DNA of 47,923 nucleotides from Verrucomicrobiota bacterium (GCA_028873295.1 JAGWKO010000004.1:1-47923), one strand, 5' to 3'; positions 1,974 through 44,500 are shown, counted from the first letter of the stretch. The notes: generated by a model not told the origin, from the letters alone. Translations and numbers: made by a program.

Positions 1974-3818
1974 ATGAATAATTTGACAAACATCACATCG
2001 TCTCATAACCTGACATTGCGTCTGCCGGTAGAATTGGAATATCCGGCAGACCAACCCGAACAAAAGAGGATAGATCTACTCAATATCCTGTCTATTAATC
2101 TTTTCAACAACATTTTCAGCTACCTGACAACCTCCGATCTTGCCCGCTGGGGAGTAGGTTGCAAGGAGATGCATGCACATGTCTCCTATTACACAAAGGG
2201 CTACACCAATATCTGGAGAGAGACTCTCCTCTCCACGCTGGAAATCAGGCGCCTCACTCCGGAATCGGCAATAACTCCAGAGGGGTTGGGGTCAGCCATC
2301 ATCAATACACCACTCCTGAAGCGTCTGGAAGTCACCAGGATCGTAGCCGGCATTCCTCCAGAATTAAAAAATGAGGTGGCTTTCCAGATATGCAAGGGAT
2401 CTGTCTCAAGAGAGAAAGTTAAGGCATTGCTACTCCTCGGAGCATTTGAGAAGGCATTCCAGGCCGCAAAAGAGTTACCGGAAGACAAGAGTTGGACATC
2501 TCTGGAGACCATAGTTCTTGCAATGGCATATACAGGCCGCAATCTGGAAGAGCAATTCCTGATTGCAAAAGCGCTGGAAGTTCATATACGTGGCGATTTT
2601 GCCAGGGAAGATATCATCGACGCAATGGCTGGAGCGGAGGACCTAGGCCTGATACAGCTGTTTGGCATGGTAAAAAGAATACAAAGTACTGACTCCCGCG
2701 ATAGAATTTTGGACAAAGTCGCACGAAGACTAAGTGAAAAAGGCGCAAGTTTGGAGGATCTGCTTGCAATCACATATAGGATCAACGAGAGAGATACATA
2801 CAACATGGTTCTGCGCCGCATCCTTGACGTAATGGCTCAAAGAGGTGCAGGGTTAGAGGACCTGGTTGCAATCGCAGGTCGAATGCAAGACAGGAGTAGT
2901 TGCAATTCAGCGTTGGTCAAAATCGCTGACACAATGTCTCAAAGAAGCGCAAGTCCAGAGGATTTGCTTCAATTCATTACGGACAGGATAGAGGATGAGC
3001 TCTATCGCAATGAGGCCTTAGTTTGCGTTGCTTGTGCGAAGGCTCAAAGAAGTGCAACTCCAGAGGAGTTGTGTCGGTTCATCAAAGACAAGATCCGGAA
3101 CACGCAGATTCGTGACCAGGCCTTATCTGAGGGTATCTGCACGATGGCTCAAAGAGGCGCCAGCGCACCACGATTGCTTGCATTCATCAAGAGTAGTATA
3201 CAAAACCAATACGAGCGTGACTCTCTTTTGTATAATCTCTCTAAAATAATAGCAGCCCGAAGCGAGAGTGCACAGGAGCCGCTACTCATTGCAGCAGAGA
3301 TCAAGAGTGACTATTTCTACCATGCTGCGTTACGCGGCATCGCAAGAGAAAGAGCGGCAAGAGGCGCGACCTCAAGGGGACTGTTGCAGATCGCAAATGC
3401 GATCAACAATCCGACACTACGCGAGGAGGCTTTGAAGGATGCTGCCACGGAAATAGCCGGACGAAGCGCAGACGTAGCAGAATTATTCACTATTACAGAT
3501 GAGATAGGAGACCCGGTAACACGCGACATGACTTTCAGAAACGCCGCGATACAAAGAGCTATCCACAACGAGAACCCGAAAGATCTGCTTTCTATTGTAA
3601 CCAGAATCTCAGATGAAAACCGGCGCAACAACGCTCTATGCGATATTGTACAGAAAATGGCGGGGCAGGGCGCGAGCTTGGAAAACCTATTTATCGTCGC
3701 AAGTGAGATACAGGATGAAGAACGGCGCAGTTTTACTTTGAGCAACAGAATTGCAAGAGAGATGTTCTTCTCAAAGCGCTATAGTAAAGAAGAGCTTCTA
3801 AGCGTCCTGACCTCGTAA
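1974..3818 (+). CDS. F-box-like protein with ~38-aa helical (TPR/HEAT-like) repeats; putative effector, paralog 1
   Basis: LNILSINLFNNIFSYLTTSDLARWGVGCKEM is F-box-like. About 11 repeats of RDxALxxIAxxMAxRGASxEELLxIAxxIxD follow. Confidence 0.8.
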   Translation: MNNLTNITSSHNLTLRLPVELEYPADQPEQKRIDLLNILSINLFNNIFSYLTTSDLARWGVGCKEMHAHVSYYTKGYTNIWRETLLSTLEIRRLTPESAITPEGLGSAIINTPLLKRLEVTRIVAGIPPELKNEVAFQICKGSVSREKVKALLLLGAFEKAFQAAKELPEDKSWTSLETIVLAMAYTGRNLEEQFLIAKALEVHIRGDFAREDIIDAMAGAEDLGLIQLFGMVKRIQSTDSRDRILDKVARRLSEKGASLEDLLAITYRINERDTYNMVLRRILDVMAQRGAGLEDLVAIAGRMQDRSSCNSALVKIADTMSQRSASPEDLLQFITDRIEDELYRNEALVCVACAKAQRSATPEELCRFIKDKIRNTQIRDQALSEGICTMAQRGASAPRLLAFIKSSIQNQYERDSLLYNLSKIIAARSESAQEPLLIAAEIKSDYFYHAALRGIARERAARGATSRGLLQIANAINNPTLREEALKDAATEIAGRSADVAELFTITDEIGDPVTRDMTFRNAAIQRAIHNENPKDLLSIVTRISDENRRNNALCDIVQKMAGQGASLENLFIVASEIQDEERRSFTLSNRIAREMFFSKRYSKEELLSVLTS

Positions 3819-4961
3819 AGTTCTCCGCATATCGCGGACAAATTCCTGAAACTCGGGCGCCTGCTGCAAGCTGGCAAAAGCGCTTTCCCCCAAAAGAGCA
3901 TCCAACTCAAGTCCCCCATACTGCCATGCTGTTTGCAGCCAGCCTCCGGCGGGCTTTGCCTGGCCCAAATGCGCAAAAGCGCGCGCATTGCGCAAAGCGA
4001 CCTCTTGTGTTGCCTGGAGTTGATAGCAATCGCTGGAGAGGCGCGCGATCAGAGCATAGTTCTCCGCCTTCTCTGCCAACCTGTGCAAAAGAGGAAGTCC
4101 CTCAGGAGAAAGGCGATCCTGTAGCGCAAAAAGCCTTTCATAAGCCTTTTTATGATCCCCCTCCTCTTCGTCAAGAAAGGCGAGGTAGTGCGCAGCGCCT
4201 GTTGCAAAAACACCCTCATCCCCTTTTTTTAAAATTTCTTCAAAAAAAGCTCTTGCCTCCTCTTTTTTCCCCTCTTTAAGGGCCTTTTCCCCCTTAATCA
4301 TCTCTCCTTGCAAAAGATCATCGCGATCTTCCTTCTTGACAAAACGGCTCTTTCGCCAGGCGTCAAAGCTCTCAAAAGCAAAGAGAAAAAAGATGGCTCC
4401 TGCAAGAAATGCGCGAATGACAAAGCAACCGAGGGCAAGAACAGTTGCAAGAATAGCCCCAATCAAAAGAGAGGCTTTAAACCCCTTCACTCCAAAGGCA
4501 GCTTCAAGAGCAATGCGCAAAAGCTGCCCTCCATCCATTGGAAGGATGGGGAGAAGGTTGACAACTGTCCAAAAGAGGTTTGCCACCTGGATGGCGCGCA
4601 GAATAGCCGTAAAGGGAGGAGTAGCAACATGGAGAGAAAGAAGAAAGGTCGCTCCGAGAAAAAGAAAAAAACCGAAGAGCGGGCCGTTAAAAGTGATCAG
4701 GAACTGCTGCCAAAAACGAAGGCGCGGTCCTTCATAAGAGGTAAGACCTCCAAGGGCAACGAGGCGAATCTCCGTCTTTTGTCGAAAGAGAAGAGCAGTG
4801 AGAGCATGGCCAAATTCATGAATAAGAACGGAGATAAAGACAATGCCAATCCAGATCAGGGTGCCCACAAGAGTGTAGCTGAAGGTCCACCCGATCAGAG
4901 CAGCAACAACCCAGAAGAGAGGGTGTATCGAAATAGGTATCTTTCCAGGAATAACGATCAC
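3798..4961 (-). CDS. Site-2 protease (peptidase M50) with TPR-like C-terminus
   Basis: HEFGH zinc motif, [11 protein letters not shown] motif and multiple TM helices; 4-nt overlap with the sucD stop. Confidence 0.9.
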
Positions 4962-5842: not shown

Positions 5843-5852
5843 TTACGACCCC

Positions 5853-7158: not shown

Positions 7159-7173
7159 ACATCAACATCCAAT

Positions 7174-8988
7174 ATGAACCTGTCTACAGCCATCATTTCA
7201 TACCCAAATCCAGCAAATGAGATCATGAGCGCGAAAAAAGAGGAGAAAAAGAGGGGCGTTGACAGACTCAGCAATCTGGACAGAGCCATCTCAACCATTA
7301 TTTTCTCCTATCTGGGGACTACCGACCTCGCTTGCTGCGAAAGGAGTTGCAAGACATTGAAGGCAAACATATTATACCATTCAAATGTCTATACAAAAAT
7401 CTGGAAAGAAACTCTTCTTCCAATGATGGGGGTTGAAAAGCCCATAATCGCTTCAGAGGAATTGGGGGCAACCATTCTGAACATGTCGACTCCGAATCGA
7501 GCCGCCATCTCCAGGATAGCAGCAAGCATTCCTCCAACATTGAAAAAAGAGATAGCCGACTGGATGACCGAAGATCCAGCATCGGAACTGAAAGTAAAAA
7601 CATTGACCTTTCTGGGGGCCTTTGATCAGGCAAGCCAGGTTGCAAACAGATTGCCGGAAGAGAAACGTCTCTTGTGTTTTTCAATCATAACGCTGGGGAT
7701 GACATATGCAGGCCGTGGCCCAAAGGAGCTGCTCGCAATCGCAAACAGATTAAAAAACAAGCTCCATCGCGAGCACGTGTTGGACGGAATCATAGAGGCG
7801 ATGCTTATAAGAGGCTCCAGGTTAGGGAATCTAATTACCATCGCAGAGAAGTTGCTGAACGGAGAGCTGCGCAACGCAAAATTACGCAACATTGTAAGAG
7901 TGATGAGTGCAAAGAGCATAAGTCCATGGAAGCTACTTGCGATTGCAGAGATGCTACGCAATGAGGTAATGCAGAATGAGATTTGGGGCGGTATTGCCAG
8001 AGGGATGGCCGAGGAAGGAATGTACCCAGAAAAACTGCTTGCGATCGTAAATAAGATACAAGACATAAGGCATCGCGACAATACCTTGCATGAGATCGTC
8101 AAGGTGATGGGCACAAAATGCGCGAGTGTAGAAGAGCTGTTTGCAAGCGCAGAAAAGATAGTGGATCAGGAAAAACGCGGTCTTGCTTTGTGCAAAGGCA
8201 TCAAAGAGATGGCCGCAAGAGGCAAAAATCCAGTAGAGCTTCTTGAATTCATCAAAACCAGGACAACAAGCAAATGGATTTATGCAGAGGTTTTGACCGG
8301 CATTATAGAGGCGCTGGCTGCAAGAGGGGATGAGTTGGAGTGGTTATTTACAATCGCAAAGACAATACGAAGCGGGTCTACCTATGATGCGCTCCTTTTC
8401 AGAACTGCCCGTGCAATGCTTACAAGAGACGCGAGCTCAACGGAGCTGCTTGCGATTGCAAATAGAACACAAAATACAAACTCCCGCGATACAGTTTTGC
8501 GCGACATCACAAATGCGATGACCACAAGTGGCTCGCGGCTGGAGGAGATATGGGCAATTGCACATGAGATACAGGACCCTGCGTATCGCGATTGCGCTTT
8601 AGGCTACATTGCAAAAGCGATGGCCACAAAAGGCTCGCAGCTGGAAGAGTTGCTTGGCTTCATGACAAATTCAATCCAAACTCCATTGCAGCGCAATGAG
8701 GCCTGGATCGAAGTTGCCCACGTAATGGCTGCAAGAGGAGAAAGACCGGAAAAGCTGCTTGAAGCCACCAATAGGATAAACCCAAGCCCAGGCCAGCGCT
8801 ACCGCGCTTTACAGAGAATTGTTCAAGCAATGGCCGGAAGAGGCGCCTCTCAGGAGGAGCTCCTTGTGATCGCAAATGAGATAACAGACAAGGGACAACT
8901 CCAGGAGACTATGCGCAGAGTTGCAAGCAAAATAGCCTCTTTGGACTGCTACAGCAAAGAGGACATTCTGAGCATCCTGACTATGTGA
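7174..8988 (+). CDS. F-box-like protein with ~38-aa helical repeats; putative effector, paralog 2
   Basis: LSNLDRAISTIIFSYLGTTDLACCERSCKTL is F-box-like. Alignable end to end with 1974..3818 (IWKETLL, IPP.LK.E, LGAF, C-terminal YSKE.IL). Confidence 0.8.
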   Translation: MNLSTAIISYPNPANEIMSAKKEEKKRGVDRLSNLDRAISTIIFSYLGTTDLACCERSCKTLKANILYHSNVYTKIWKETLLPMMGVEKPIIASEELGATILNMSTPNRAAISRIAASIPPTLKKEIADWMTEDPASELKVKTLTFLGAFDQASQVANRLPEEKRLLCFSIITLGMTYAGRGPKELLAIANRLKNKLHREHVLDGIIEAMLIRGSRLGNLITIAEKLLNGELRNAKLRNIVRVMSAKSISPWKLLAIAEMLRNEVMQNEIWGGIARGMAEEGMYPEKLLAIVNKIQDIRHRDNTLHEIVKVMGTKCASVEELFASAEKIVDQEKRGLALCKGIKEMAARGKNPVELLEFIKTRTTSKWIYAEVLTGIIEALAARGDELEWLFTIAKTIRSGSTYDALLFRTARAMLTRDASSTELLAIANRTQNTNSRDTVLRDITNAMTTSGSRLEEIWAIAHEIQDPAYRDCALGYIAKAMATKGSQLEELLGFMTNSIQTPLQRNEAWIEVAHVMAARGERPEKLLEATNRINPSPGQRYRALQRIVQAMAGRGASQEELLVIANEITDKGQLQETMRRVASKIASLDCYSKEDILSILTM

Positions 8989-9925
8989 TCACGGAAGGTT
9001 CATACTCAAATCTTTTACGAGCCGCTGTCATGCGAGCCTTCAGCTCTTCACCGCATGCCGCAGTAATGCAGTTGCCCCGAAGATCGAGTTTCCAAAACTT
9101 TGGTTTTGTAATCACGGCATTCACAAGGGCCGTTGCAGCCGCATCATCAATCTTGTTGAATTGCCACGAGAACACGTTCCTTTTGTTTTGATGAGACGTC
9201 TCCACGAACCAGTTTTCCATAGCATTGGGATTTGAAAGATCGATTTGCTTTACGGCGCTATTTTCCTGATGGGTCAGAGCTGTTGCAAGATGCGCGGCCT
9301 CTTCGCTTGTTATGCAATTATGAGGGAAGTACAGCTCAGAAACTGTTGTATTGCTGTGCAAAGCATTAGCGATGCGTTCCATTGAACTGTGCATCTTGCG
9401 ATTGCAAATAGAAATCGAGCTCAGATTCGCATCGTTATTTTGCAAGAATTCCTCTATGAGTTGAGTGTTTTCTTCTGTAAGGTTCACGCCGCTTCTCCAC
9501 GGCTCAAGGCGATGAAAAAAAGCGCACAGACGTAGATGACCCCCTCGAATTGTGGGAACTTCTGTCCTCGACCACTCGCTCTCACCGATTTCACTACGCC
9601 AGTCATCAAACTGGGACTCAAATCTGCGCTCAATAATTCCCTGCGCAACACTCCAGTTTCTATTGGTGAGGGACTGTCGCATCGTTCCCCAATGCGCTTG
9701 GGCAACTTCGTACAAATACCTGCAAGTCGTAGCAAGCTCCCTGAAATGTTTCGGAGGAGAAAATGTACCACGTCCCCAACTATAGCCTATCTCCCGTCCC
9801 AAAGCTAGGAGATCCGCCTCTTCGTCAAGCCGCAAAAAACAACGACAGTCTTCCTCTGAAACCAAAAAACTATACACAGAACGCAGACAGTCTGCGCTGA
9901 GACTTAATAAAGATGATGACGCCAT
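8981..9925 (-). CDS. F-box-like plus RNI-type leucine-rich repeat protein; putative effector
   Basis: N-terminal LLSLSADCLRSVYSFL; LRRs ALHSNTTVSELYFPHNCITSEEAAHLATAL, NKIDDAAATAL and LDLRGNCIT. Confidence 0.65.
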   Translation of the reverse strand: MASSSLLSLSADCLRSVYSFLVSEEDCRCFLRLDEEADLLALGREIGYSWGRGTFSPPKHFRELATTCRYLYEVAQAHWGTMRQSLTNRNWSVAQGIIERRFESQFDDWRSEIGESEWSRTEVPTIRGGHLRLCAFFHRLEPWRSGVNLTEENTQLIEEFLQNNDANLSSISICNRKMHSSMERIANALHSNTTVSELYFPHNCITSEEAAHLATALTHQENSAVKQIDLSNPNAMENWFVETSHQNKRNVFSWQFNKIDDAAATALVNAVITKPKFWKLDLRGNCITAACGEELKARMTAARKRFEYEPSVIT

Positions 9926-11145: not shown

Positions 11146-11553
11146 ATGACGAAAGTGCTTATTCGTTACCGAGACCCTTTAGGGACAGAATCCGAGCAGC
11201 TTGATTCGGGCGCGCGTGTTATCATGGAAGCACCAAAAGAGATCGGTGGCAAAGGTGGGGCCTTCTCTCCTACCGACATGATCGGAACGAGCCTTGCCTC
11301 ATGCATGCTGGTGATGATGGGTCGTCTTGCCGCAAAGCTCAAAATTTCTCTAGAAGGAGCAACCGCTGATGTAGAAAAAGAGATGGCGCAAACAACTCCT
11401 CGTCGCATCGCAAAATTGACCATCCATTTTCGTTTCAGAGTCACTCCACCAGCAGAAGTGCAGAAACAGCTGGAAAAGGAAGCCATGAACTGCCCTGTTC
11501 ACTTCTCCTTGCATCCTGATGTACAGCAGGAGATTCAGTTCTTTTGGGGCTAA
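11146..11553 (+). CDS. OsmC/YhfA-family protein
   Basis: APKEIGGKG..FSPTD, LASCM and NCPV two-cysteine pattern. Confidence 0.9.
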   Translation: MTKVLIRYRDPLGTESEQLDSGARVIMEAPKEIGGKGGAFSPTDMIGTSLASCMLVMMGRLAAKLKISLEGATADVEKEMAQTTPRRIAKLTIHFRFRVTPPAEVQKQLEKEAMNCPVHFSLHPDVQQEIQFFWG

Positions 11554-12617
11554 AAATTTCTCTTTTAGAACTGATTGAGGGGACTCGGTTTTATCTACAG
11601 GAAGAGAGTTCTCTCCTTGCGTCCCCTGAGGAAGCCGCCTATTTTCGCACATTTTTTTCTTCCAGGAATGCCGAAAAAGCCTTTACGCCTCCGCCCTCAG
11701 AGCGGGCCGTAGAGAAGAGACCTGAGAAGAGTGCTGCCGTAGAAAAGCCGGTAGAGAGACTTCTTCCGCGTCCGCTCTCAGAAAAAAAAACCGAAAGCAC
11801 TGCTATTGCAGCAAAGCCGGCAGAAAAACTCCTGCCACCGCCCCTCTCAGCAAAGCCAGAAGAAAAACCGGCAGAAAGATTGCTCCCGCCTCCGCTTTCA
11901 GCGCAACCCGTAGAAAAGAGATCTGAGAGCACTGCTGTTGCAGAAAAACCGGAGGAGAGACTTCTTCCACCTCCAGAACAACCCGAAGAAAAGAAATCCG
12001 AGAATGCCGCAGTCGCAGAAAAGCAGTCAGAAAGCAAGCGGGAACGCCCTGCTGTCGCAGAAAAGCCGGTAGAGAAACTGCACCCGCTCTCCCCACCACC
12101 GATGCAAATAGGGCGCCTGAAGGGGATCGTGCAAAAGGTACTCCCCCATCTTGCGATCATAGAGCAAATTCCAAGTGATGCGATGGCAAAGAAAATTGCA
12201 AATCTCTGGAAAGCACATGCCCTTGCAGCCCCCATTTCGATTCTCTTCGGAGAAGAGCCTCCGCAACATCAATTCTTCTTAAAAGAGTTAGCCAGCGCTC
12301 TTACAGTCTACTATGGAGAAGCTACGCTTGTTTCTGCAGAAGCGCTAGAAAAAGAAAAAGAGTGGGAACATTTTCTCACAACAGACTCCCTGCGTTTCAT
12401 TTTGCTCTCTCACACCACATTATGGCAGCTGACAGGGCTACGCTCTTTTTATAAAGAGATGCCCGGCTCGGGCGTGCGCCTGCTCCACAAAACTCCCCTC
12501 TTTCTTCTTCCAGATCTTTCTCTCTACTTCAAAGACCCTCTTTTAAAACAAACCCTTTGGGGCGCAATCAATGCGGCCTTTTATAAGGAAAATATATGCC
12601 CTGTATTGCCGAAGTAG
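11544..12617 (+). CDS. Chlamydial conserved hypothetical protein (CT779-like by position next to priA) with Pro/Glu/Lys-rich repeat insert
   Basis: Long ORF overlapping the priA start; C-terminal LFLLPDLSLYFKDPLLKQTLW; TTG start uncertain. Confidence 0.65.
   Translation: MGLKISLLELIEGTRFYLQEESSLLASPEEAAYFRTFFSSRNAEKAFTPPPSERAVEKRPEKSAAVEKPVERLLPRPLSEKKTESTAIAAKPAEKLLPPPLSAKPEEKPAERLLPPPLSAQPVEKRSESTAVAEKPEERLLPPPEQPEEKKSENAAVAEKQSESKRERPAVAEKPVEKLHPLSPPPMQIGRLKGIVQKVLPHLAIIEQIPSDAMAKKIANLWKAHALAAPISILFGEEPPQHQFFLKELASALTVYYGEATLVSAEALEKEKEWEHFLTTDSLRFILLSHTTLWQLTGLRSFYKEMPGSGVRLLHKTPLFLLPDLSLYFKDPLLKQTLWGAINAAFYKENICPVLPK
11736..12094 (+). repeat. Five imperfect coding repeats (A/E)KP(V/A/E)E(R/K)L(L/H)P(PP)
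   Basis: DNA units such as gcagaaaaaccggaggagagacttcttcc recur at about 11736, 11808, 11858, 11940 and 12057. Confidence 0.8.
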
Positions 12618-14599
12618 CAGTTGAGCGCAGAAAAGCGCTTCGTTTTGACTACTCTATCCCTGAAGAGTGGAGAGAAGCGGCGCAGGTGGGCGTCCGTGTT
12701 GCCATCCCCCTGCAAGGAAAAACAGCCAAGGGGGTCATCGTCGCCCTGAAAGAGAGCTCTCAGTTTGAAAACCTGCTCCCCATCACCGAACTGCTCTCCC
12801 CTACTTCAGAGTTAAGTGCTGCGCAATGGCGCCTTGCTGGCTGGATGGCGCGCTACTATGCCACTCCTTTAGAGCTTGTTTTACGCCTTTTTATCCCCGC
12901 CCCCATCCGCCAGGATGTAAAAAGCAGAAAAGGCAAAGAAGAGACGCTTCTTTTGGAAGCCGATTTTTTTCAAAGCCTCCCTAAAACGTTGAATCCGGAA
13001 CAGAAGGCTTGCCTTGATCATATCAAGGCCTCCCTACAGAGCGAAAAGTTTAAAGTGCATCTGATCCATGGCATCACGGGAAGCGGGAAAACAGAAATCT
13101 ACCTCCAGGCCATAGAGGAGGCAAGAAGACTTGGCAAAGCAGCTCTCTTTCTTGTCCCGGAGATCTCCCTCACCTCACAAACACTGGAGCGCATCAGGGC
13201 GCGCTTTCAGGAACCGGTCGCTCTTTTGCATCATAGGCGCAGCCTCGGAGAGAGAAACGCAGCCTGGCGCAAGCTTGCAAGCGGCGAGATCTCTATTGCC
13301 ATCGGCGCACGCTCTGCACTTTTTGCCCCCATACCGCGCCTTGGCGTCATCATCCTCGATGAAGAACACGACTCTTCCTACAAACAAAGTGAAGAGGCTC
13401 CCTGCTACCATGCCCGAAGCGTCGCCATCATGCGCGCCCACATGGAGTCAGCAACCGTGCTTCTCGGCAGCGCCACCCCATCGCTCGAATCACGCTACAA
13501 TGCAGAGATCGGCAAATACCAGCTCCATTCCCTCACACGTCGCGCAAGCTCCGCTACGCTCCCTACCATCCAGATCGTCGACATGAAGGCAGCGCACCTT
13601 AGAAACGGCGGATTTACCCACTTCTCCGATCACCTGCTGAAAGCTATCGAAAGCCGCATCAAAAAAGGAGAACAGACCCTTCTCTTTCTCAACCGCAGAG
13701 GGCATCATCGCCTCGGACTTTGCCGAGAGTGCCAGACAGCCATCCAATGCCCGCACTGCGATCTCTCCCTCACCTTTCACAAAGGAGAGGAGCAATTGCG
13801 TTGCCATCTCTGCGGCTTCGAGCGCTCCGCAAATGAGTATTGCCCCTCCTGTGGATCGCGTGGGACCATACAATGCAAAGGCTTCGGAACAGAGCATGTG
13901 GAAAGATCTCTGCATGCCGTTTTTCCGGAAGTGCGCACTCTGCGCATGGATCGCGACACGACGCGAAAAAAAGAGAGCCATGAAGAGCTTTTTCAACAGT
14001 TCCGCGCTCATAAAGCAGATGTTCTTATCGGGACACAGATGATCGCAAAGGGGTTCCATTTCCCTTCTGTTACCCTTGTCGGCATTTTGCACGCAGATGC
14101 ATCCCTGCAGATCCCCGACTTTCGCTCCAGCGAATTTCTCTTTCAACTCCTCATCCAGGTTTCAGGAAGAGCAGGAAGGGCAGACCTCCCGGGCGAAGTA
14201 ATCCTGCAGACTTTCCTCCCGGAGCACCCGGTGATCCTGCTTGGGAAAAACCAGGACTATGATGCTTTCTATACAAGAGAAATGGAGGAGAGAAAGCTCT
14301 TCGGCTATCCCCCCTTTACCCATCTCATTAAATGCCTCTTCTCCTCTAAAAAAAGCGAAAAAGCACTCGAAGCAGCGGAGTGGACCTGGCGCAAGATTCA
14401 GGAGCTCTCCACTCCCGCTCTTCAGATCCTGCCGGTAGGACCCTCAGGTCACCCAAAAATTAAAGACCTCTTTCGATTCCAGTTTCTCATCAAAGCAAAA
14501 GAGCGCAAGGAATGCGAGAGGGTTTCCCTCTTTCTATCATCCCTCTCCTTCCCGGATGCCTATATCAAAGTCGATGTCGATCCATCATCGCTTTGGTAA
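12596..14599 (+). CDS. priA: Primosomal protein N' (PriA helicase)
   Basis: GITGSGKT, DEEHD, GSATPS, four CxxC zinc pairs and QVSGRAGR. Confidence 0.96.
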   Translation: MPCIAEVAVERRKALRFDYSIPEEWREAAQVGVRVAIPLQGKTAKGVIVALKESSQFENLLPITELLSPTSELSAAQWRLAGWMARYYATPLELVLRLFIPAPIRQDVKSRKGKEETLLLEADFFQSLPKTLNPEQKACLDHIKASLQSEKFKVHLIHGITGSGKTEIYLQAIEEARRLGKAALFLVPEISLTSQTLERIRARFQEPVALLHHRRSLGERNAAWRKLASGEISIAIGARSALFAPIPRLGVIILDEEHDSSYKQSEEAPCYHARSVAIMRAHMESATVLLGSATPSLESRYNAEIGKYQLHSLTRRASSATLPTIQIVDMKAAHLRNGGFTHFSDHLLKAIESRIKKGEQTLLFLNRRGHHRLGLCRECQTAIQCPHCDLSLTFHKGEEQLRCHLCGFERSANEYCPSCGSRGTIQCKGFGTEHVERSLHAVFPEVRTLRMDRDTTRKKESHEELFQQFRAHKADVLIGTQMIAKGFHFPSVTLVGILHADASLQIPDFRSSEFLFQLLIQVSGRAGRADLPGEVILQTFLPEHPVILLGKNQDYDAFYTREMEERKLFGYPPFTHLIKCLFSSKKSEKALEAAEWTWRKIQELSTPALQILPVGPSGHPKIKDLFRFQFLIKAKERKECERVSLFLSSLSFPDAYIKVDVDPSSLW

Positions 14600-35094: not shown

Positions 35095-35985
35095 ATGAGG
35101 GTCTTCAAACCTGTCGTCTCACTCCTTCTTCTCTCTGGTCTGATTCTTCTTGCCATCCTGCTCTTACAATTCTTTGAGCTTTCGCACTTTCAATCCTACA
35201 TCGCAATCCTTTTTCCCAAAGGGATGATCGGGGTTAAAGAAGCCGACCTTCTCCTGATCATTCAGGCGATCATGCTGATTGTGGTCTTCCCCGTCTATCT
35301 CTTTACCTTTCTCTTTTCCTGGCTCTACCGCTCTGACAATCCGCATGGTATTTATGATCCCGACCTCATCGATCACCGCGTCGCGGAATATTTTTGGTGG
35401 GGGACCCCCCTTGTTTTAACAGCAGTGATCTGCTCTATTACTGTGATTCGCACCTATCAACTCGACCCCTTCAAGCCGATTGTCTCTGATGTTCCTGCGA
35501 AAAGAATTCAGGTCGTCGCCCTGCAGTGGAAATGGCTCTTCATTTATCCGGAAGAAAAAATTGCCAGTCTCAACTTCGTCCAACTCCCTCTCAATACTCC
35601 GATTCATTTTGAAATCACCGCAGACGCCCCCATGAACTCCTTTTGGATCCCTCATCTCGGGAGCCAGATCTACGCAATGCCAAAGATGCGCTCTGAGCTC
35701 TACCTGATCGCAGATGCAGAGGGCGATTTTCCCGGCTACTCTGCAAATATCAGCGGAACCGGGTTTTCCGACATGCACTTCATCGCGCGCGTCTCTAACC
35801 AGGAGGCCTTCGAAGAGTGGGTTGCCCTTGCAAAAAAAAGCAGTGAAAACCTCGATATTCCCTCCTTCGAACTTCTGGCCCGTCCACAGGAAGGGTACCT
35901 TGCTCCGAAGACCTATCGTCTCCAGGATGAAACCCTTTTCGACTATGTACTCATGAAATATATGTATCCACAGGCAATACAATGA
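35095..35985 (+). CDS. cyoA: Quinol oxidase (bo3-type) subunit II
   Basis: WKWLFIYP, MNSFWIP.LG.QIYAM and SANISG.GF..M.F; no CuA ligands. Confidence 0.93.
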   Translation: MRVFKPVVSLLLLSGLILLAILLLQFFELSHFQSYIAILFPKGMIGVKEADLLLIIQAIMLIVVFPVYLFTFLFSWLYRSDNPHGIYDPDLIDHRVAEYFWWGTPLVLTAVICSITVIRTYQLDPFKPIVSDVPAKRIQVVALQWKWLFIYPEEKIASLNFVQLPLNTPIHFEITADAPMNSFWIPHLGSQIYAMPKMRSELYLIADAEGDFPGYSANISGTGFSDMHFIARVSNQEAFEEWVALAKKSSENLDIPSFELLARPQEGYLAPKTYRLQDETLFDYVLMKYMYPQAIQ

Positions 35986-37949
35986 ACTGGGCAGGAAAAC
36001 TCACACTCGACGCTTTTCAGCATGAACTCAGCCAAAATATCGCGGTCGTCTCGATGGCACTTGGCGGGATTGCCATCGCAGGACTTCTCTTCTACCTGAA
36101 ACGATGGCGCTGGCTCTGGGACGAATGGCTCACCTCCGTGGACCCCAAAAAGATCGGGGTCATGTACATCATTACTGTTATTCTCATGTTCACGAAGGGC
36201 TTTGCCGATGCTCTGTTGATGCGACTGCAACAGGCCCTTGCTGTTGGAGACAATCAGGGATTTATTTCCGCAGAGCATTTTCAGGAGATCTTTTCTGCGC
36301 ACGGCACGACGATGATCTTCTTTGTCGGTATGGGAGTCATCTTTGGGCTGATGAATCTTATCGTCCCCCTTCAGATCGGCGCCCGCGATGTAGCTTATCC
36401 CTTTTTAAACGCGGTCGGCTTTTGGCTCTTTGCAGCTGGCGCAGTTTTAACCCTCATCTCTCTTGCCTATGGCGGCTTCTCCATCTCGGGATGGCTCTCC
36501 TACCCTCCCCTTTCAGGCCTCGAATATAGCCCGGGAACAGGGACAAATTACTGGATCTGGGCAGTCCAGGTCGCAGGCGTAGGGAGTACTCTTGCAGGAA
36601 TCAATTTTCTTGCGACAATTCTCAAAATGCGCTGCCCTGGCATGACCTTCATGAAAATGCCCATCTTTGTCTGGAGCGTTCTTTGCGCCGTGGTTCTGAT
36701 CGTCTTTGCCTTCCCCATTCTTACAGCCACGCTCTATCTCCTCACCCTCGATCGCTATATGGGCACGCATTTCTTCACCGTAAGCGGCGGAGGAAACTTC
36801 ATGCTCTACATCAACCTGATTTGGGCCTGGGGACACCCCGAAGTCTATATTTTGATCCTCCCCGCTTTTGGCGTCTTCTCCGAAGTGGTCGCCACGTTCT
36901 CGGAAAAACGCCTTTTTGGCTATGCATCAATGGTTTGGGCGCTTATCTTCATCGCCATTCTCTCCTTTATCGTATGGCTTCACCATTTCTTTGTGATGGG
37001 GGCAAGTCCTGCCGTCAACTCCTTCTTTGGCGTGATGACGATGGTGATCGCGATTCCAACTGGGGTCAAGGTGTTTAACTGGCTCTTCACTAAATTTCGC
37101 GGTCGCGTCCATCTCACATCGCCCATGTTCTGGTTTTTTGCCTTCATTCTCAACTTTACAGTGGCAGGAATGACGGGCATGCTTCTCTCCTCGCCTCCTG
37201 TGGACTATCAGGTGCATAATAGCCTTTTTCTCATTGCGCACTTCCATGGCATGGTTATTGGAGGGGTTCTCTTTGGTTTTTTCTGTGCCTTCACCTACTG
37301 GTTTCCCAAATTCACTGGCCTTGCCCTGGATGAAAAGCTCAACCGCTATGCCTTCTGGTGCTGGTTCCTTGGCTTTCTCATCGCCTTTATGCCGCTCTAT
37401 ATGCTGGGGTTCATGGGGGCAACAAGAAGGTTGAGCCACTATGAAGCCTCTACCGGCTGGCATCCTCTCTTTGTTCTTGTGGGCATTGGGGCCCTCATCA
37501 TTCTCGCAGGCGCCCTTATCCAGACCTATGGGCTCTACACGGTTCTGCGCTATCCGGAGCGCCACCGCGTGCGTTCCTCCGATCCCTGGAATGCAAGAAC
37601 ACTGGAGTGGTGGGCCCACTCCCCGCCTCCTGTCTATAATTTTGCGATTCTTCCCATTGTTGGCAGCATTGATCCGCTCTGGGCGAAAAAAAAGGGAGAA
37701 GCGCCTGAGCAATCCGGCATCTATGAGCCGATCCCCATTCCCAACAATACAGGAATTCCTTTCCTCATCGGGGCTTTTGCCCTTGTCTTTACCTTTGCGA
37801 TTACCTGGGAAGTCTACTGGCTCTCTCTTCTTTCCTTTGTAGCGATTGCGATTGCACTCATCGTCCGCCTTTCCGGTCCTGACACACAGGAACACACCAT
37901 GCTCAGCGCAGAAGAAGTTCAAATGATGGAGCAAAAACTTACGTTATGA
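35982..37949 (+). CDS. cyoB: Quinol oxidase subunit I
   Basis: HGTTMIFF, WGHPEVYI, WLHHF and AHFH heme/CuB ligands. Confidence 0.97.
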   Translation: MNWAGKLTLDAFQHELSQNIAVVSMALGGIAIAGLLFYLKRWRWLWDEWLTSVDPKKIGVMYIITVILMFTKGFADALLMRLQQALAVGDNQGFISAEHFQEIFSAHGTTMIFFVGMGVIFGLMNLIVPLQIGARDVAYPFLNAVGFWLFAAGAVLTLISLAYGGFSISGWLSYPPLSGLEYSPGTGTNYWIWAVQVAGVGSTLAGINFLATILKMRCPGMTFMKMPIFVWSVLCAVVLIVFAFPILTATLYLLTLDRYMGTHFFTVSGGGNFMLYINLIWAWGHPEVYILILPAFGVFSEVVATFSEKRLFGYASMVWALIFIAILSFIVWLHHFFVMGASPAVNSFFGVMTMVIAIPTGVKVFNWLFTKFRGRVHLTSPMFWFFAFILNFTVAGMTGMLLSSPPVDYQVHNSLFLIAHFHGMVIGGVLFGFFCAFTYWFPKFTGLALDEKLNRYAFWCWFLGFLIAFMPLYMLGFMGATRRLSHYEASTGWHPLFVLVGIGALIILAGALIQTYGLYTVLRYPERHRVRSSDPWNARTLEWWAHSPPPVYNFAILPIVGSIDPLWAKKKGEAPEQSGIYEPIPIPNNTGIPFLIGAFALVFTFAITWEVYWLSLLSFVAIAIALIVRLSGPDTQEHTMLSAEEVQMMEQKLTL

Positions 37950-38566
37950 CAGTCCACTATACTCCGCCACTTACACCAGACACGCGCTTTCCTGACCCAC
38001 ACCAAGATATGTTCGCGCGAAATATCCTCGGGTTTTGGATCTATTTGATGACCGATTGTCTTATCTTTGCGACACTCTTCATCACACATGCCATTCTAAA
38101 AGCGGAAACGTTCGGGGGCCCTTCAGGACGCGAACTCTTCGATCTGCCCTACACTTTTGCAGAAACAGCGGCTCTTCTTCTCAGCAGCATCACCTGTGGC
38201 TTTGCCATCCTCTCCTCCCTGCAAAAGAAGCTGAAGTCAGTCATTGCCTGGCTAATCGTTGCTTTTCTTTGCGGCGCTCTCTTTGTCGGACTGGAGCTTC
38301 ATGAATTCTCCTCTTTTGTCGAACAGGGGGCGAGCTGGGCCCGAAGTGCCTACCTCTCCTCCTTCTTTGCTCTTGTTGGAACACACGGCCTTCACGTCTC
38401 TCTTGGTCTCACCTGGCTCTCTGTGCTCATAGGGCAGCTGCTTTTCTATGGCATCACTCCCTTTATCTTCAGACGCCTTGTCATCTTTGCCATGTTCTGG
38501 CACTTTCTCGATCTCGTCTGGATCTTTCTTTTTACCTTTGTCTACCTGTTTGGAGTCCTGTTATGA
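37946..38566 (+). CDS. cyoC: Quinol oxidase subunit III
   Basis: GFWIYLMTDC, LVGTHGLHV and FWHFLDLVW motifs. Confidence 0.96.
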   Translation: MTVHYTPPLTPDTRFPDPHQDMFARNILGFWIYLMTDCLIFATLFITHAILKAETFGGPSGRELFDLPYTFAETAALLLSSITCGFAILSSLQKKLKSVIAWLIVAFLCGALFVGLELHEFSSFVEQGASWARSAYLSSFFALVGTHGLHVSLGLTWLSVLIGQLLFYGITPFIFRRLVIFAMFWHFLDLVWIFLFTFVYLFGVLL

Positions 38567-38999: not shown

Positions 39000-39599
39000 A
39001 TGGAAAACACAAAATCAAATTCCAGACTTTATCTGTGGGCGCAAAACAAAGCGATTTCTACAAAAGCGCCCCTTTGGATAGGAGTTCTCTTTTTTCTGGA
39101 ACTCTTTCTCCTCATTCCCCTTGACCCGATTCTTCTCTTTTTTTGTTTACAGAGGCGCCCCAACATCTTTCTCTATACGATCACAGCGGCGGTTGCATCT
39201 GTTTTAAGCGGAGCCATGGGTTATCTGGTGGGGCGTTTTCTTTGGGATTTGATGGGGCCCTTTGTTCTTACTCACCTTCTTTCACCAGCACAATTTGAAA
39301 AGCTCTCTTACCACCTGCAAACCTATGAGCACCTGGCTGTCTTTGTAGGCATGCTTCTTCCTTTTCCTCTCAAAGCGCTCAGTCTTCTCTCCGGAGTTTT
39401 CCAACTGGGTTTTCTGCCCTTTGCCCTTTTCATGCTTCTGGCGCGTTTGCTCCGGTTTTCCTTAATCGGCGGGGTAAGTGCGGTATGGGGCGAGAGAGTA
39501 CAACCCTTTATCGAGCGTCATTTTCAACATATTCTCCTTGTTATCGGAGCAAAAGTAGCTGTTGTTCTTCTTTGCGCCTGGCTTTTTTCAAGAGGATGA
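39000..39599 (+). CDS. DedA/YqaA (VTT-domain) membrane protein
   Basis: IPLDPIL, SVLSGAMGY, PFPLK and ARLLRF motifs. Confidence 0.88.
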   Translation: MENTKSNSRLYLWAQNKAISTKAPLWIGVLFFLELFLLIPLDPILLFFCLQRRPNIFLYTITAAVASVLSGAMGYLVGRFLWDLMGPFVLTHLLSPAQFEKLSYHLQTYEHLAVFVGMLLPFPLKALSLLSGVFQLGFLPFALFMLLARLLRFSLIGGVSAVWGERVQPFIERHFQHILLVIGAKVAVVLLCAWLFSRG

Positions 39600-42320
39600 C
39601 TGCGGCAATAAAGAAGTTGGCTCACCTGGGCTCTTCGGCATCGGAGGCATCGAAATGGAAGCAGATTCGATATTCCTCTGGAGTTGCTCTGCCTTCTGCA
39701 GTCTCTCCTTCTTCTTTTCTATCTGCCATTCGCCTGCCATGATCTCTTTGATGTCTGTAGAATCAAGAGTCTCAAACTCGATCAGCATGTGCGCCATGAG
39801 ATCGACTTTCTCTTTTCTCTCTTCTAAAATTTTAACTGCCTTTTGATGCGCCTGATCGATCAGGGACTTCACTTCGCGATCAATCTTCTGCGCTGTCTCT
39901 TCTGAATAGTTCTTCTCATGGTATCCAGCAACACCGAGATATTGCCCCGACTCTGTCCTCTCATCATAGGAAACAGCGCCGAGATTATCGCTCATTCCCC
40001 ACTCGCAAACCATACTGCGCGCCATTCGCGTCGCCTGCTGGATGTCATGCTGTGCGCCAGAAGAGAGATCTCCGACAAAGAGCTCCTCGGCAGCTCTGCC
40101 TCCCATCAAAACAATGAGGCGATCGAGAGCTTCCTTGCGCCAAAAACTAAGCCGATTTTTTGTCGGCATAAAATGTGTTGCACCAAGAGAAAAGCCACGC
40201 GGGATAATCGTCACCTTATCTACAGGATCGCTATGCTCTACGATAAGACCTGCAATAGCATGTCCTGCTTCATGGTAAGCTGTCGTTTTCTTCTCATTCT
40301 CATCCATCTCAAGGCTGCGTCTCTCCTTACCATAACGCACCTTATCGCATGCCTCTTTCACCTCAATCGAAGTGACTGCAGACCTGCCGTTGCGTGCTGC
40401 CAAAAGGGCCGCCTCATTCAAAACGTTTTCCAAATCAGCCCCTGAAGCGCCTGGTGTACTGCGAGCGACATCGTTGAGATCGACAGACGGGTCCATCTTG
40501 ATCTTGCGCGCATGCACCTTCAAAATTTCATAGCGCCCCTTAATATCAGGAAGATCAAGAACAACTCTTCGATCGAAACGACCTGGTCTGAGAAGTGCTT
40601 TGTCAAGAATATCGGGGCGATTTGTCGCAGCCATCAGAATAACGCCCTCTTTGGTGTCAAATCCATCCATTTCCACGAGCAACTGGTTCAGAGTCTGTTC
40701 GCGTTCATCATGCCCGCCACCAATGCCAGCGCCGCGGTGACGCCCTACAGCGTCGATCTCATCCATAAAAATGATGCAGGGAGCATTCTTTTTAGCCTGG
40801 TCAAAAAGATCGCGGATGCGACTTGCACCGACACCCACAAACATTTCGACAAAATCAGAACCGGAAATAGAGAAAAAGGGACGATCCGCTTCTCCCGCGA
40901 CAGCCTTTGCAATCAATGTCTTTCCCGTCCCCGGAGGTCCCACGAGAAGCACACCCTTGGGAATTCTTGCTCCAAGAGCTGTAAATTTTTGAGGATCCTT
41001 GAGAAAGTCGACAATCTCTTTCAATTCCTCTTTTGCCTCTTCTGCTCCAGCGACATCTTTAAATGTGAACTTGTTCTGCTCCTTTGTCATCAAACGAGCC
41101 GGCGACTTACCAAAGTTCATTGCAGAACCACCGACACCCTTCATCTGTTTGGAAAAAATCATGTAAAGGAAGAGGAAAATAAGCAGGACAGGAAGAATCG
41201 TAAGAATAAGACTGAAGTAGTTAGGAGAAGGTTCCTGACTTTTAAAGGTCTTTTCCAGCACTGTGGTGCGCGGCTGATCTGGCGCTCGATAGCCAAGGCC
41301 TTTATTTTGGGAAAAATTCTCCCATTCCTCTTTTGCTTGGGCAAACCAGTAGCTGTAGACCTCAGGATCCTGCTTTTCCAAAGCGCGCGTCGAAAGTTCC
41401 TGATTGTTGAAAAACCAGATCACCGAAGCGACCTTCTGGCGTGCCTTGTCCAGGAGCATACGATTCTGTTCCAGAGCTTGAGCCACTCCGGTATAGTTCT
41501 GCAGTACTTCTCGATAGTGCCGCACAGAGCGAAGAGCTGTGAGGCGAACCCCATTCTCCTCTCTTCCGATCTCCGCAATAAAGCCAGCTACCTGTCCTGC
41601 GATCCTGCGCTCTACAAGAAGAGCTGCCTCACCTGTCGGAAGGGCAGAAAGTTCAGTTTCCCAATCCTTTAACTGCTGCTTCATCGCCTCACTGCCAATA
41701 CCCAAAAGGGGAGAGCGCAATGCAGCCACCAGATCGCGCAATTCCCGCCCGGCAGCATCCAGACTCTCAACTGTTGGCATCTGACCTGCAAGCTCAACGC
41801 TCTTCTGAGCAAGAATAATATTCGGAGTTTCCCTATCCGATAGCTTATGAACGACAATCGCGTTGATACGTTCTGATGTATCGTATTGTGGCCCCACCAC
41901 AGTGTACCCAATCCTGGGAAGAGCCTGACCGCGAATATGCAGGTAAAAATCAGCCGCATCCTCCACCTGTTTTTGCAATTGGACAAGCTCCTCATTCAGA
42001 TAGCGGTCCTCTGCTTCGAGTTGGTGATTCTTCTCCAAAAGCTCAAGGTAGCGGTAGCGCTCTACGCTTTCCTCCGAAAGAGCCTGCTGGAATCTTCCGC
42101 TAAAGGTAACGAGATTCTCATTCTGGGCAATTTTACGATTCTCCTCAGGCACGGTCAGACGTAAATTCGTCAGGTGTTCTGCCTGATGACTAAAAGAAAC
42201 TTTCCCAGACGAAGTTGATGTAACAGACTGAACGACAAGAAAAAAGAGGATCCCAATCACAATAAAGAGAAGCCAGCCTCTTGGAAATTTCTTTTTTTGG
42301 TCAGGTTGCATAGATGCCAT
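39588..42320 (-). CDS. ftsH: ATP-dependent Zn metalloprotease FtsH (long chlamydial periplasmic domain)
   Basis: [23 protein letters not shown] and HEAGH motifs. Confidence 0.98.
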
Positions 42321-42427: not shown

Positions 42428-42478
42428 ATATACCGGGAAAAGCTCCAAAGTCAGACTTTTGAGCTTTTCCCGGTATAT
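42428..42478. repeat. 51-bp near-perfect palindrome with TATA ends (MITE-like)
   Basis: ATATACCGGGAAAAGCTCCAAAGTC-A-GACTTTTGAGCTTTTCCCGGTATAT; 24 of 25 positions pair. Confidence 0.85.
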
Positions 42479-42541
42479 ACCGAAAAAGTCGGGCTCTTCT
42501 TTCCGAATAGCAGAAAAGGAATTATCGCATGCATTATTTTT

Positions 42542-44500
42542 TTAACCGGTTATAACAGCGAGGAGTTCATCTTCGCTGCGACCAGCTCTGGCCATTGCAT
42601 AGGCAGTCTCATTCAAAGTCACTTGGCGCCAATCCAGGCCGGGCTCGGAAGCGCTCTTTTGATTTACGATAGAGAGGATCTCTTCTACGCTACGACCGGA
42701 AGAGCCCATCGCGATAGCAATTTTGTGCAAAGCGTTATTACGGGAGTCCGGATCCTTTATTTCTCCCACAAGCATCACGATCTCAGATACACTGAAACGA
42801 CATGAGCCGACATGACTAATAATGCTATTCATGCCATGCAACGCCTTATTTTCTTTTATTTCATTTGCAATGCGCAAAAACCGACTCACATTTTGATCAA
42901 CCAGCAGGGCTGTACGGGCAACATTCTCCAAAGCAGACATGCATTGGTATCTATCTTTTATTGCTCTTGCGACACGCTCAAGTTCATCTGTTGTTCGAAA
43001 ACAGGACTTTACTTTGAAGAAGACGTGCAATAAAAAATTGTCGCGCTGCTTCCGATCTTGTATTGCGCCTGTAACCCTCAAAATCTCTTTCAGACTGCGA
43101 CCTGCAAAGATCATTGCTGTGAGGATATGGCTTAAAGCATTGCCACGCGACGCTCCCTCTATTTCACTTATGCATCGCAGGCTATCGCTCAGATCGCCTC
43201 CAGCGTGGATCGACTGACAGCAAAGGCCTATTTGCAACGTTCTGTCGCGCAATGTCGAATCCCTGATCTCATTTGTGAAGCGCAACAACTCTCCATCTCT
43301 ATCACAGCCAACTTCAGTCAGTGCTAAAACAGCATCGCTTAATACAAAATCGCGATCAGAGGTCCACTGAGCGCAGAAAATTGTAGGGTGCATTTCTTTT
43401 GCAACAAGCAGGATCTCATCTGCAGTGTAACCAGAAGTGGCCATTTTCAAAACAACATCTCCCAAAAATTTAGTTTGGAGATCTCTACTCTGTTGTATCT
43501 CACCTGCGATACGCAAACATTCACTTGCATTGCAATGGGCATCGACCATCTTTAACACAAAAAATCTCAGCCCTCTAATGTCCGCATATGTGTTCTGCAG
43601 CTCTCTTGCAAAGCATAAAAATTCCTCTCCACTGCGACTTATAACTCCTTTTACTGAAACGATATGCGCTAAAACCTCGTAACGGGTATCAATCCCCTGT
43701 ATCGCACTTGCAATATGTAAAAGATCCTCTTCACTGCGGCTTGTTCTGGCTGCCGTATAAACGATCTGCTCCAAAGAAAGATCTCGAAGATCCTCGCGCA
43801 ATTCCCTTACCACGCTCAAGATCTCGTCTGCACTGCGTCCAACAGAAGTCATCGCAACCGCTATATTGTTCAAACTCCAGCTGCGAGTGCCATTCAATGG
43901 ATCATCTATTTTGACAGACAAAAGCTCTTCGACACTGCGACCTGCGAATACCATCGCAAGAACAATAACGAGCAACTCAGGCTCGCGCTCTTCTGGACCA
44001 GGCATCGTCTTTGCAACTTCAAATGCTGGAGAAAATGCCCTTAGCCGAGAGAGCTCTCTTGACTTCTGCTCAGGTGTCAAACTTCGCTGGCAGACTCTTG
44101 CACTCAACCCAATCTTTTCCCACTCAGGGGGAACGCCAGATGCAATCGCACTCAGCTTGGCAAGCGTCAAATCGGGAGATCCTAAAATGGCCGGCTCTAC
44201 CTCTTTCTCCTGGCCCATTGAAAAGGAAAAATGATCGACAATCCAACGTCGCGCAAAAATCGCCACATCAGATCTCATTTGTCTGGAAACAAGAGAGCAG
44301 AAAAATAGATCCCTTGTTTCCAGAAAGGAATAAATTAGGGAAGAATTGTCTATCGATAATTTAAAAATTAAAGAAATCTTGCTATAAGAATTCGATCTGT
44401 CTTCACCATCACGAACGCTCATATGACGATTGTCCAGAGAAATAAACGTCAAATTATTTGTTGATATAATAGCAGAGTTCATATTATTAATAAGGCACAT
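42542..44500 (-). CDS. F-box-like protein with ~38-aa helical repeats; putative effector, paralog 3
   Basis: KLSIDNSSLIYSFLETRDLFFCSLVSRQMR is F-box-like. Shares the GVPPE, RAF..AF and LAMVFAGRS linker and the repeats; start may be 44482. Confidence 0.78.
   Translation of the reverse strand: MCLINNMNSAIISTNNLTFISLDNRHMSVRDGEDRSNSYSKISLIFKLSIDNSSLIYSFLETRDLFFCSLVSRQMRSDVAIFARRWIVDHFSFSMGQEKEVEPAILGSPDLTLAKLSAIASGVPPEWEKIGLSARVCQRSLTPEQKSRELSRLRAFSPAFEVAKTMPGPEEREPELLVIVLAMVFAGRSVEELLSVKIDDPLNGTRSWSLNNIAVAMTSVGRSADEILSVVRELREDLRDLSLEQIVYTAARTSRSEEDLLHIASAIQGIDTRYEVLAHIVSVKGVISRSGEEFLCFARELQNTYADIRGLRFFVLKMVDAHCNASECLRIAGEIQQSRDLQTKFLGDVVLKMATSGYTADEILLVAKEMHPTIFCAQWTSDRDFVLSDAVLALTEVGCDRDGELLRFTNEIRDSTLRDRTLQIGLCCQSIHAGGDLSDSLRCISEIEGASRGNALSHILTAMIFAGRSLKEILRVTGAIQDRKQRDNFLLHVFFKVKSCFRTTDELERVARAIKDRYQCMSALENVARTALLVDQNVSRFLRIANEIKENKALHGMNSIISHVGSCRFSVSEIVMLVGEIKDPDSRNNALHKIAIAMGSSGRSVEEILSIVNQKSASEPGLDWRQVTLNETAYAMARAGRSEDELLAVITG

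Follow-up and report, generated by a model that had tools for sequence, protein, structure and literature searches.

Expansions of F-box effectors are among the clearest signatures of the manipulation of host ubiquitination by environmental chlamydiae and other protist-associated bacteria. Two such families have been described in Neochlamydia (Domman et al. 2014, PMC4209131): the 138 members of NEX1 combine an F-box or RING domain with a conserved, unknown region of about 50 residues and leucine-rich repeats (LRRs), and the 50 members of NEX2 combine an F-box with DUF294/OTU and tetratricopeptide repeats (TPRs). According to the available text of that paper, the tested NEX members carry type III secretion signals that are functional in a heterologous assay, and its authors argue that chance contributes to such expansions. 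Here we analyze three genes, at 1974–3818, 7174–8988 and 42542–44500, on a contig of 47,923 nucleotides (nt) from a Verrucomicrobiota bacterium (GCA_028873295.1, JAGWKO010000004.1:1-47923; this whole stretch is called the window), which is one of the 84 contigs of a 1.41-Mb genome that is 97% complete. Each gene encodes a protein with an N-terminal F-box-like region and a C-terminal array of 34-residue helical repeats. On balance, and with moderate confidence, we favor the reading that they belong to a lineage-specific family of about 21 type III-secreted mimics of the substrate receptors of Skp1–cullin–F-box (SCF) ubiquitin ligases, in an obligate intracellular, chlamydia-like bacterium. The family would add an example of such an expansion in a small, 1.4-Mb genome.

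In the available description, NEX2 resembles the window family in its N-terminal F-box, in the variable number of its C-terminal TPRs, in its large lineage-specific expansion in an environmental chlamydia, and in being proposed to comprise type III-secreted manipulators of host ubiquitination. It differs in that most members are described with a mid-protein DUF294 and ten with OTU, neither of which occurs in the window family; compared likewise by description, the window family has a linker of its own, repeats that the Pfam TPR models miss, and 21 instead of 50 copies. The order F-box, conserved linker of unknown family, repeat array is shared with NEX1a, although the repeats described there are LRRs and not helical hairpins, and the linker has another length. 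A multi-copy combination of an N-terminal F-box with a C-terminal repeat array characterizes NEX-type expansions, and is found here in 21 copies. Judged by description, the family is of the same kind as the NEX families, in another lineage, and is set apart by its linker, its Pfam-invisible TPR subtype and the lack of DUF294 and OTU. A first-pass annotation of the window had noted that expansions of F-box genes with LRR or ankyrin repeats are known in amoeba-associated chlamydiae; in the available account of Neochlamydia, both F-box/LRR and F-box/TPR proteins are expanded (PMC4209131).

Legionella pneumophila AnkB is similar in being an F-box effector with a repeat domain for substrate binding that is active in amoebae, where it exploits host ubiquitination, as summarized in the available text of PMC4209131. 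It differs from the window family in having ankyrin repeats in place of TPRs, and in being a single gene and not a family. AnkB also depends on another secretion system and carries a prenylation motif at its C-terminus; from the window family a Cys-containing tail is absent. No description of the window family was found in literature listings and abstracts.

A multigene family with a common architecture

The three open reading frames (ORFs) are intact and homologous along their entire length, and ORF calls and translations place them exactly where the first-pass annotation had drawn them. Genes 1 and 2 lie on the plus strand and align end to end with 32% identity (BLASTP 2e-75); gene 3, on the minus strand, is more distant from gene 1 and collinear with it (BLASTP 5e-22). 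Gene 1 (P0001; 1974–3818, family profile E = 0) encodes 614 residues comprising a leader, a degenerate F-box, a linker and 13 TPR-like repeats. Its F-box-like region (residues 34–86; 2073–2231) aligns with the paralog F-boxes and has LS where an F-box has LP, the family-private linker as defined by the family alignment occupies residues 104–172 (2283–2489), and the array of 34-residue repeats (residues 173–614; 2490–3815) ends with ...EELLSVLTS. The same architecture is found in gene 2 (P0002; 7174–8988, 604 residues), with an F-box-like region at residues 30–82 (7261–7419) in which LD replaces LP, an alignment-defined linker block at residues 96–164 (7459–7665), and an array of 13 repeats of 34–35 residues (residues 165–604; 7666–8985) ending with ...KEDILSILTM. 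Gene 3 (P0003; 42542–44500) is a 652-residue ORF with an F-box-like region at residues 43–91 (44228–44374), again with LS for LP, a linker block, from the same alignment, at residues 100–171 (43988–44203), and a more degenerate array of about 14 units at residues 172–652 (42545–43987) ending with ...EDELLAVITG. The common architecture proposed earlier was recovered in all three proteins as an N/S/T-rich leader followed by the motifs I[FY]S[YF]L..T.DL, ..[GS][IV]PP and K...L..L.AF..A..A..[LM]P. A further motif that had been ascribed to the linker, [IV].L[AG]M.[YF][AT]GR, belongs instead to helix A of repeat 1, as the first unit detected by the hidden Markov model (HMM) described below begins at residues 173, 165 and 172 of genes 1, 2 and 3, respectively.

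The true start of gene 3 is probably Met7, at 44482, because the conserved leader MNSAIIS shared with the paralogs begins there. Its public protein record (P0013) has 578 residues and begins 74 residues inside the ORF; this gene call loses most of the F-box together with the leader; automatic annotation would therefore miss the F-box, and the case illustrates how public gene calls can remove this domain. The leader is rich in Ser, Thr and Asn, which together make up 40.5% of residues 2–21, compared with 16.7% across a background of 830 ORFs. The linker of about 70–85 residues that separates the F-box from repeat 1 is conserved family-wide. It gave nothing below E = 0.025 against Pfam and, at best, a HAMP domain with E = 0.045 against the PDB, and showed no detectable relation to the repeat by hhalign (probability 0.3%). 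In the AlphaFold2 (AF2) model of gene 2 it forms helical hairpins that are continuous with the solenoid, with predicted local distance difference test (pLDDT) values of 65–91. The upstream regions of 19 copies are AT-rich and contain −10-like boxes, and no shared motif was seen in them by inspection.

A profile built from the three window proteins and searched against the genome's complete set of 2,647 ORFs with 100 or more residues identified 21 family ORFs, the weakest with E = 3e-15, and thereby extends what had been described as a three-gene family. Together they sum to 11,879 residues, or 2.5% of the genome. Full-length architecture, with F-box, linker and at least four repeats in open frames of 428–910 residues, is present in 16 of the 21; of the other copies, two at contig ends lack the N-terminus, one has a degenerate F-box and one has no detectable repeats. 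Family matches with internal stops occur on contigs C57, C72, C79 and C71. The count of 21 is a lower bound, since five copies are no more than 170 nt away from a contig end, and families of this type break short-read assemblies. In a tree of the N-terminal region, terminal branches are very long (median 1.25 changes per column), and genes 1 and 2 fall in a supported clade of ten (98/96) with gene 3 outside; the branch lengths and clade placement indicate that the window copies are old paralogs and not recent tandem duplicates.

In a mini paralog of 253 residues (C71:1-762), leader, F-box and linker are followed by only one repeat, the terminal one, which ends with ...PEEILNILTV; this copy looks as if recombination between repeats had removed its whole array, or as if the assembly had collapsed; a second repeat fragment lies at the opposite end of this 2.4-kb contig. 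A paralog fragment at the end of another contig (C79:2-988) consists of ten near-identical 34-residue units with 71% self-identity at period 34, which indicates recent tandem amplification of 102-bp units, an amplification that probably breaks the assembly at this point.

The family is apparently private to this single genome. The family profile found no site in one genome of the same genus (80% complete), and among 40 relatives it gave weak matches in four genomes, to the repeat portion only. A pattern scan of GTDB species representatives yielded 159 pattern sites, none of which was confirmed by tblastn; a word-index homologue search with the gene 2 protein returned only the genome's own copy on contig C52, and a search of longer proteins with the N-terminal alignment returned no match, which is weak evidence. 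No close relative outside the genome was found among the matches examined. Within the order, F-box genes in general are frequent, being found in 21 of the 40 relatives examined, with up to 44 matches in one genome; in the eight F-box ORFs that were scanned, the F-box is accompanied by WD40 repeats in two, ankyrin repeats in one and unrecognized domains in five. Looser relatives occur: a 341-residue F-box-like protein of the same-genus genome scores 26.7 bits and carries two weak units that resemble the repeat, and in another genus an ORF of 518 residues combines a weakly scoring F-box (E = 3e-4 with the family profile) with TPR_30 and ANAPC3, both over cut-off.

One SctV is encoded in the genome of the window family. 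This genome also has three full-length genes for TLC-type ATP/ADP (nucleotide) transporters (contigs C58, C16 and C23) and one partial match; transporters of this type are typical of energy-parasitic intracellular bacteria. SctV and the three transporters fit a bacterium of obligate intracellular, chlamydia-like type that possesses type III secretion. Pfam Chlam_OMP6 had no match in the genome and none in the control genomes either, which makes it uninformative.

The F-box in the family and in the window genes

Profile comparisons make a strong case that the N-terminal motif is an F-box at the level of the family. A whole-genome scan with the Pfam F-box-like profile (PF12937, cut-off 24.3 bits) gave 15 matches, all in family genes and ten of them above the curated cut-off, and the same search found nothing above cut-off in 14 control genomes. 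When the F-box pieces of 16 paralogs were compared with Pfam at E ≤ 0.1, 15 matched F-box-like and 14 matched F-box (PF00646, cut-off 20.5 bits), the best with 7.8e-9. A profile made of these 16 pieces retrieved 15 PDB sequences at E ≤ 1, all of them F-box proteins (FBXL5, KDM2A/B, FBXO3, FBXW7/8/11, FBXL2, Dia2, cyclin F, FBXO31, FBH1 and beta-TrCP), with FBXL5 as the best match (2e-4). The match with FBXL5 and KDM2B (PDB 6vcd_B and 6bva_E), the best-scoring of these proteins, extends over LPxxhhxxIFSYLxxxDLxxCxxVC and reaches E-values of 2e-4 to 4e-4 only; the partner domains of these two proteins are LRR or JmjC, and the conserved Trp that follows helix 3 of eukaryotic F-boxes is Met in the window family.

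The scores of the window genes are lower. Gene 1 matches F-box-like at residues 46–70 with 12.1 bits (E = 0.17), gene 2 matches F-box-like with 17.9 and F-box with 13.8 bits, and gene 3 matches F-box with 16.9 and F-box-like with 13.5 bits, all below cut-off; in the whole-genome scan, gene 2 gave 21.7 bits for F-box-like at 7300–7380. The HMM search that the first-pass annotation had proposed as a check thus leaves its F-box reading well founded for the family, with ten paralogs above cut-off and exclusively F-box proteins among the PDB matches, and weaker for the three genes on which it was based, which score 12.1–17.9 bits and lack the Pro of the motif. As these genes are collinear with paralogs that pass the cut-off, F-box homology by descent is supported for them even though each fails alone, and by their scores and missing Pro they stand at the eroded extreme of the family. 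The Leu-Pro dipeptide at the start of helix 1 is a defining feature of F-boxes, and the F-box-like alignments of genes 1 and 2 begin at profile position 11–12, after this motif. Models of gene 2 have helices at residues 37–46, 49–58 and 60–85, at pLDDT 61–76 in one model and 25–50 in the other. Structure searches barely covered this part: VIA-align in its wide mode covered residues 92–234 only and listed no F-box fold, and Foldseek with the N-terminal model gave no match at E ≤ 1e-3.

A divergent TPR-type array

The repeat unit had been given as 38 residues, a value that has to be revised to 34 on the evidence of both autocorrelation and unit spacing. Autocorrelation peaked highest at period 34 in 14 of the 18 paralogs for which it was computed, gene 3 among them. 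The repeat HMM and genome-wide count suggested in the first-pass annotation yielded, after iteration, 202 units in 20 of the 21 family proteins, with 182 spacings of which 89 are exactly 34, 129 are in the range 33–35 and two are 38. Division of array length by 34, and for gene 2 also the count of AF2 helices, gives 13 hairpins each for genes 1 and 2 and about 14 for gene 3, instead of the 11–12 counted before. The HMM itself detects 11 units in gene 1, with two gaps of 69 residues that hide one undetected unit apiece, 12 units in gene 2 at spacings of 34–35 residues throughout, and eight irregularly spaced units in gene 3.

Eighty clean units give the consensus R-D-x-A-L-x-x-[IV]-A-x-A-M-A-x-R-G-A-x-x-E-E-L-L-A-I-[AI]-x-x-I-x-D-x-x-x. 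Positions of high entropy are 3, 6, 7, 10 and 14, lined up along a single face of helix A with i, i+3/4, i+7 spacing, and positions 30 and 32–34 in the loop. The AF2 model of gene 2 (mean pLDDT 80.3) shows a regular solenoid (pLDDT 81–95) of 13 hairpins, each made of a long helix of 17 and a short helix of 8–10 residues. Fifteen of the 21 proteins stop one residue past a conserved ...[ILMV][LI]xx[LIFA]T, and hence at an identical phase within helix B of the last unit; the earlier observation that all three window genes terminate at one repeat phase is borne out by their tail motifs.

The relationship of the repeat was examined by an exhaustive hmmsearch of 1.84 billion cluster representatives with a two-unit profile built from 48 segments, which gave 819 matches at E ≤ 1e-3, of which 201 reached ≤ 1e-10 and 26 reached ≤ 1e-30. 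Comparison of the 42 best-ranked matches with the genome identified 12 as its own proteins (99.6–100% identity). A Pfam scan was made of 35 of the 150 matches listed (P0005–P0040 without the 3,564-residue P0017), 24 of them non-self. Among these 24, TPR-clan families (TPR_12, TPR_30, TPR_19 and others) lie over the matched arrays in 21; signal transduction ATPases with numerous domains (STAND)-type NTPase modules (NACHT, nSTAND1, NB-ARC, NPHP3_N or AAA_16) are present in 17, together with TIR, CHAT or trypsin heads; and an F-box is present in none. P0014 (1603 residues) matches the two-unit profile with 2.8e-53 in 14 stretches, and TPR_12 matches the same array with 1.3e-43; its TPR_2 match at residues 997–1027 is in phase with the unit start of the window family. 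Aligned matches show a similar unit, RSxALxxIAKSLAEQGKxDEALEVAxRIEDAxx, and a related chlamydial genome (G021) encodes a 394-residue ORF built of such units, with TPR_12 at 6.6e-23 and the two-unit profile at 3.8e-30 in what was a small database.

The Pfam TPR models themselves find little in the family, with one of 15 full-length paralogs matching TPR_30 (E = 0.052, 14.4 bits, cut-off 29.7) and no other TPR family at E ≤ 0.1. A PDB search with the repeat profile ranked TON_1535 (3zpj) first, with E = 0.0045 and nothing else below 0.1; no literature on Ton1535 was found. Structural neighbors in the protein Atlas are TPR_30, TPR_19 and TPR_12 clusters with template modeling (TM) scores of 0.54–0.58, to be taken as a lead only. 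Foldseek with the full gene 2 model gave generic α-solenoids at TM ≤ 0.36, and the best VIA-align score, Z 9.1 over the region named above, was on designed helical repeats; because the matches of both programs, HEAT, TPR, PPR and designed repeats, are generic, structure alone cannot tell TPR from HEAT.

We conclude from the profile matches that the array is a divergent TPR-type repeat, of the class found in bacterial STAND NTPase sensor arrays. Class and register are common to the window family and the TPR_12/TPR_30 arrays of these NTPases, R[DS]xALxxIAxxxAxxGxxxEAL/ELLxIAxxIxD, with whole-protein E-values down to 8e-57 for the two-unit profile. The STAND arrays differ in having mostly 33-residue units with ...EAL.VA..., compared with 34 residues and ...EELL.IA.... 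in the window family, and in belonging to proteins with NTPase and effector heads and no F-box. The earlier proposal of an undescribed scaffold was not sustained, since the unit is a 34-residue helical hairpin whose profile matches TPR_12/TPR_30-positive arrays. The array largely falls to a named repeat family already linked to F-boxes, the combination of F-box and TPR having been published for NEX2 in the available text of PMC4209131. The family would also show that such effectors can have, as their substrate-binding module, a TPR subtype that escapes the Pfam models.

Proposed function, rival readings and neighboring genes

In the mechanism that we propose, the disordered, Ser/Thr/Asn-rich leader would send the protein into the host cell by type III secretion, the F-box would dock on host Skp1 and take the substrate-receptor slot of the SCF ligase, and the TPR-like solenoid would capture host proteins for ubiquitination. 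The target of each paralog would be set by the solvent-facing helix A positions 3, 6, 7, 10 and 14 and by the number of repeats, and the family would evolve by birth and death together with internal repeat amplification. Should the variable helix A face indeed set the targets, the paralogs would constitute a natural panel for mapping the host proteins attacked by an uncultured chlamydia.

The idea, present already in the first-pass annotation, that variable positions diversify targets gains weak support from the helix A pattern and from a crude Nei–Gojobori estimate of the ratio of nonsynonymous to synonymous substitution rates (dN/dS), a check proposed there, of 2.85 at variable and 1.17 at scaffold positions. 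The estimate is drawn from 35 recently duplicated unit pairs with at least 80% nucleotide identity, none of them from the window; as the pairs are non-independent and gene conversion may distort dS, it is only a hint. Contigs assembled from four DNA runs are near-identical to the window, with two single-base differences in gene 1, and hold too little variation for a selection test.

Several points weigh against the reading of the window genes as secreted SCF mimics. None of the three attains a Pfam F-box cut-off on its own, the sub-threshold matches lying at residues ~32–77, and the Pro of Leu-Pro is gone from all of them (LS, LD and LS) and retained in only nine of 19 aligned paralogs. In other F-box proteins, mutating Leu-Pro to Ala-Ala abolishes the binding of Skp1. 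The F-box region of gene 2 is modeled only at pLDDT 25–50 or 61–76, the putative secretion signal is deduced from leader composition, and 28 of the 35 dN/dS pairs come from the one C79 fragment. Furthermore, the NEX and PEX families are described, in the available text of PMC4209131, as being under purifying and not positive selection.

The loss of Leu-Pro could mean that the window copies and the other paralogs without it no longer engage Skp1, and act as SCF-independent TPR scaffolds or as decoys, for example by sequestering the targets of F-box-competent paralogs, or that the remnant helices contact something else. The sub-threshold scores, the Pfam alignments of genes 1 and 2 that start past the motif, and the intact and well-modeled repeat arrays speak for this; the hydrophobic core IFSYL..T.DL...C is, however, conserved in all three window genes and suggests continued constraint on the F-box helices, and F-box proteins with atypical N-terminal motifs exist. 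We regard a complete loss of Skp1 binding in these copies as unlikely. A combined view holds that the family is a private, still-diversifying library of about 21 SCF mimics in a single chlamydial species, each joining an F-box to a TPR array of the type that otherwise serves bacteria as the sensor of STAND immune NTPases, in which new 34-residue units are amplified in tandem and then changed preferentially on the ligand face of helix A, and of which about half, including the three in the window, would have lost Leu-Pro and become ligase-independent decoys or regulators; taken as a whole, this is a tentative proposal that we find slightly easier to accept, and still doubtful.

Alternatively, the family may be largely non-adaptive, a birth-and-death expansion drifting to pseudogenes in which many copies have no current function. 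Such drift would account for the very long terminal branches, the 253-residue mini copy, the two N-terminally cut copies and the matches with internal stops, and for the absence of a match in the 80%-complete genome of the same genus; the published view that chance plays a part in such expansions, given in the available text of PMC4209131, points the same way. Yet 16 copies retain long open frames with all three modules, and scaffold residues, leader and, in 15 of 21, the C-terminal tail are conserved across very old paralogs, which requires purifying selection and makes general decay improbable. Still harder to credit is that the proteins are not secreted at all, and are TPR adaptors of the bacterial cytoplasm that descend from STAND-type sensor arrays, their resemblance to F-box proteins being incidental. 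The nearest relatives of the repeat do reside on bacterial STAND NTPases that act inside bacteria, but no NTPase or other bacterial effector domain occurs in the family, and ten copies exceed the F-box-like cut-off as against none in the 14 control genomes. Bacteria are not known to have Skp1 or cullin partners, which also speaks against such a role. Secreted SCF mimicry by the family is accordingly the reading that we retain as the most probable.

Other genes in the window were noted. A 699-residue ORF at 45537–47636 (+), separated from gene 3 by tilS, combines LRR_4 (2.9e-29) with an NEL ('novel E3 ligase') domain at the C-terminus (6.4e-12; 45.8 bits, cut-off 24), which we take to be of the IpaH/SspH type, and is a second candidate effector of the ubiquitin system. 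ORFs without Pfam matches are found at 8981–9925 (−; 314 residues), convergent with gene 2 and overlapping its stop codon by 8 nt, and at 11544–12617 (+; 357 residues). Two tandem ORFs of 970 and 910 residues, at 14585–17497 (−) and 17494–20226 (−), overlap by 4 nt and have no Pfam match at E ≤ 1e-5. A heme–copper quinol/cytochrome oxidase cluster (COX_ARM, COX1 with 4.4e-140, COX3) is located at 35095–38566 (+), and 39588–42320 (−) encodes a 910-residue FtsH in which the AAA and M41 domains begin at residue ~457, after a long N-terminal extension that has no domain assignment.

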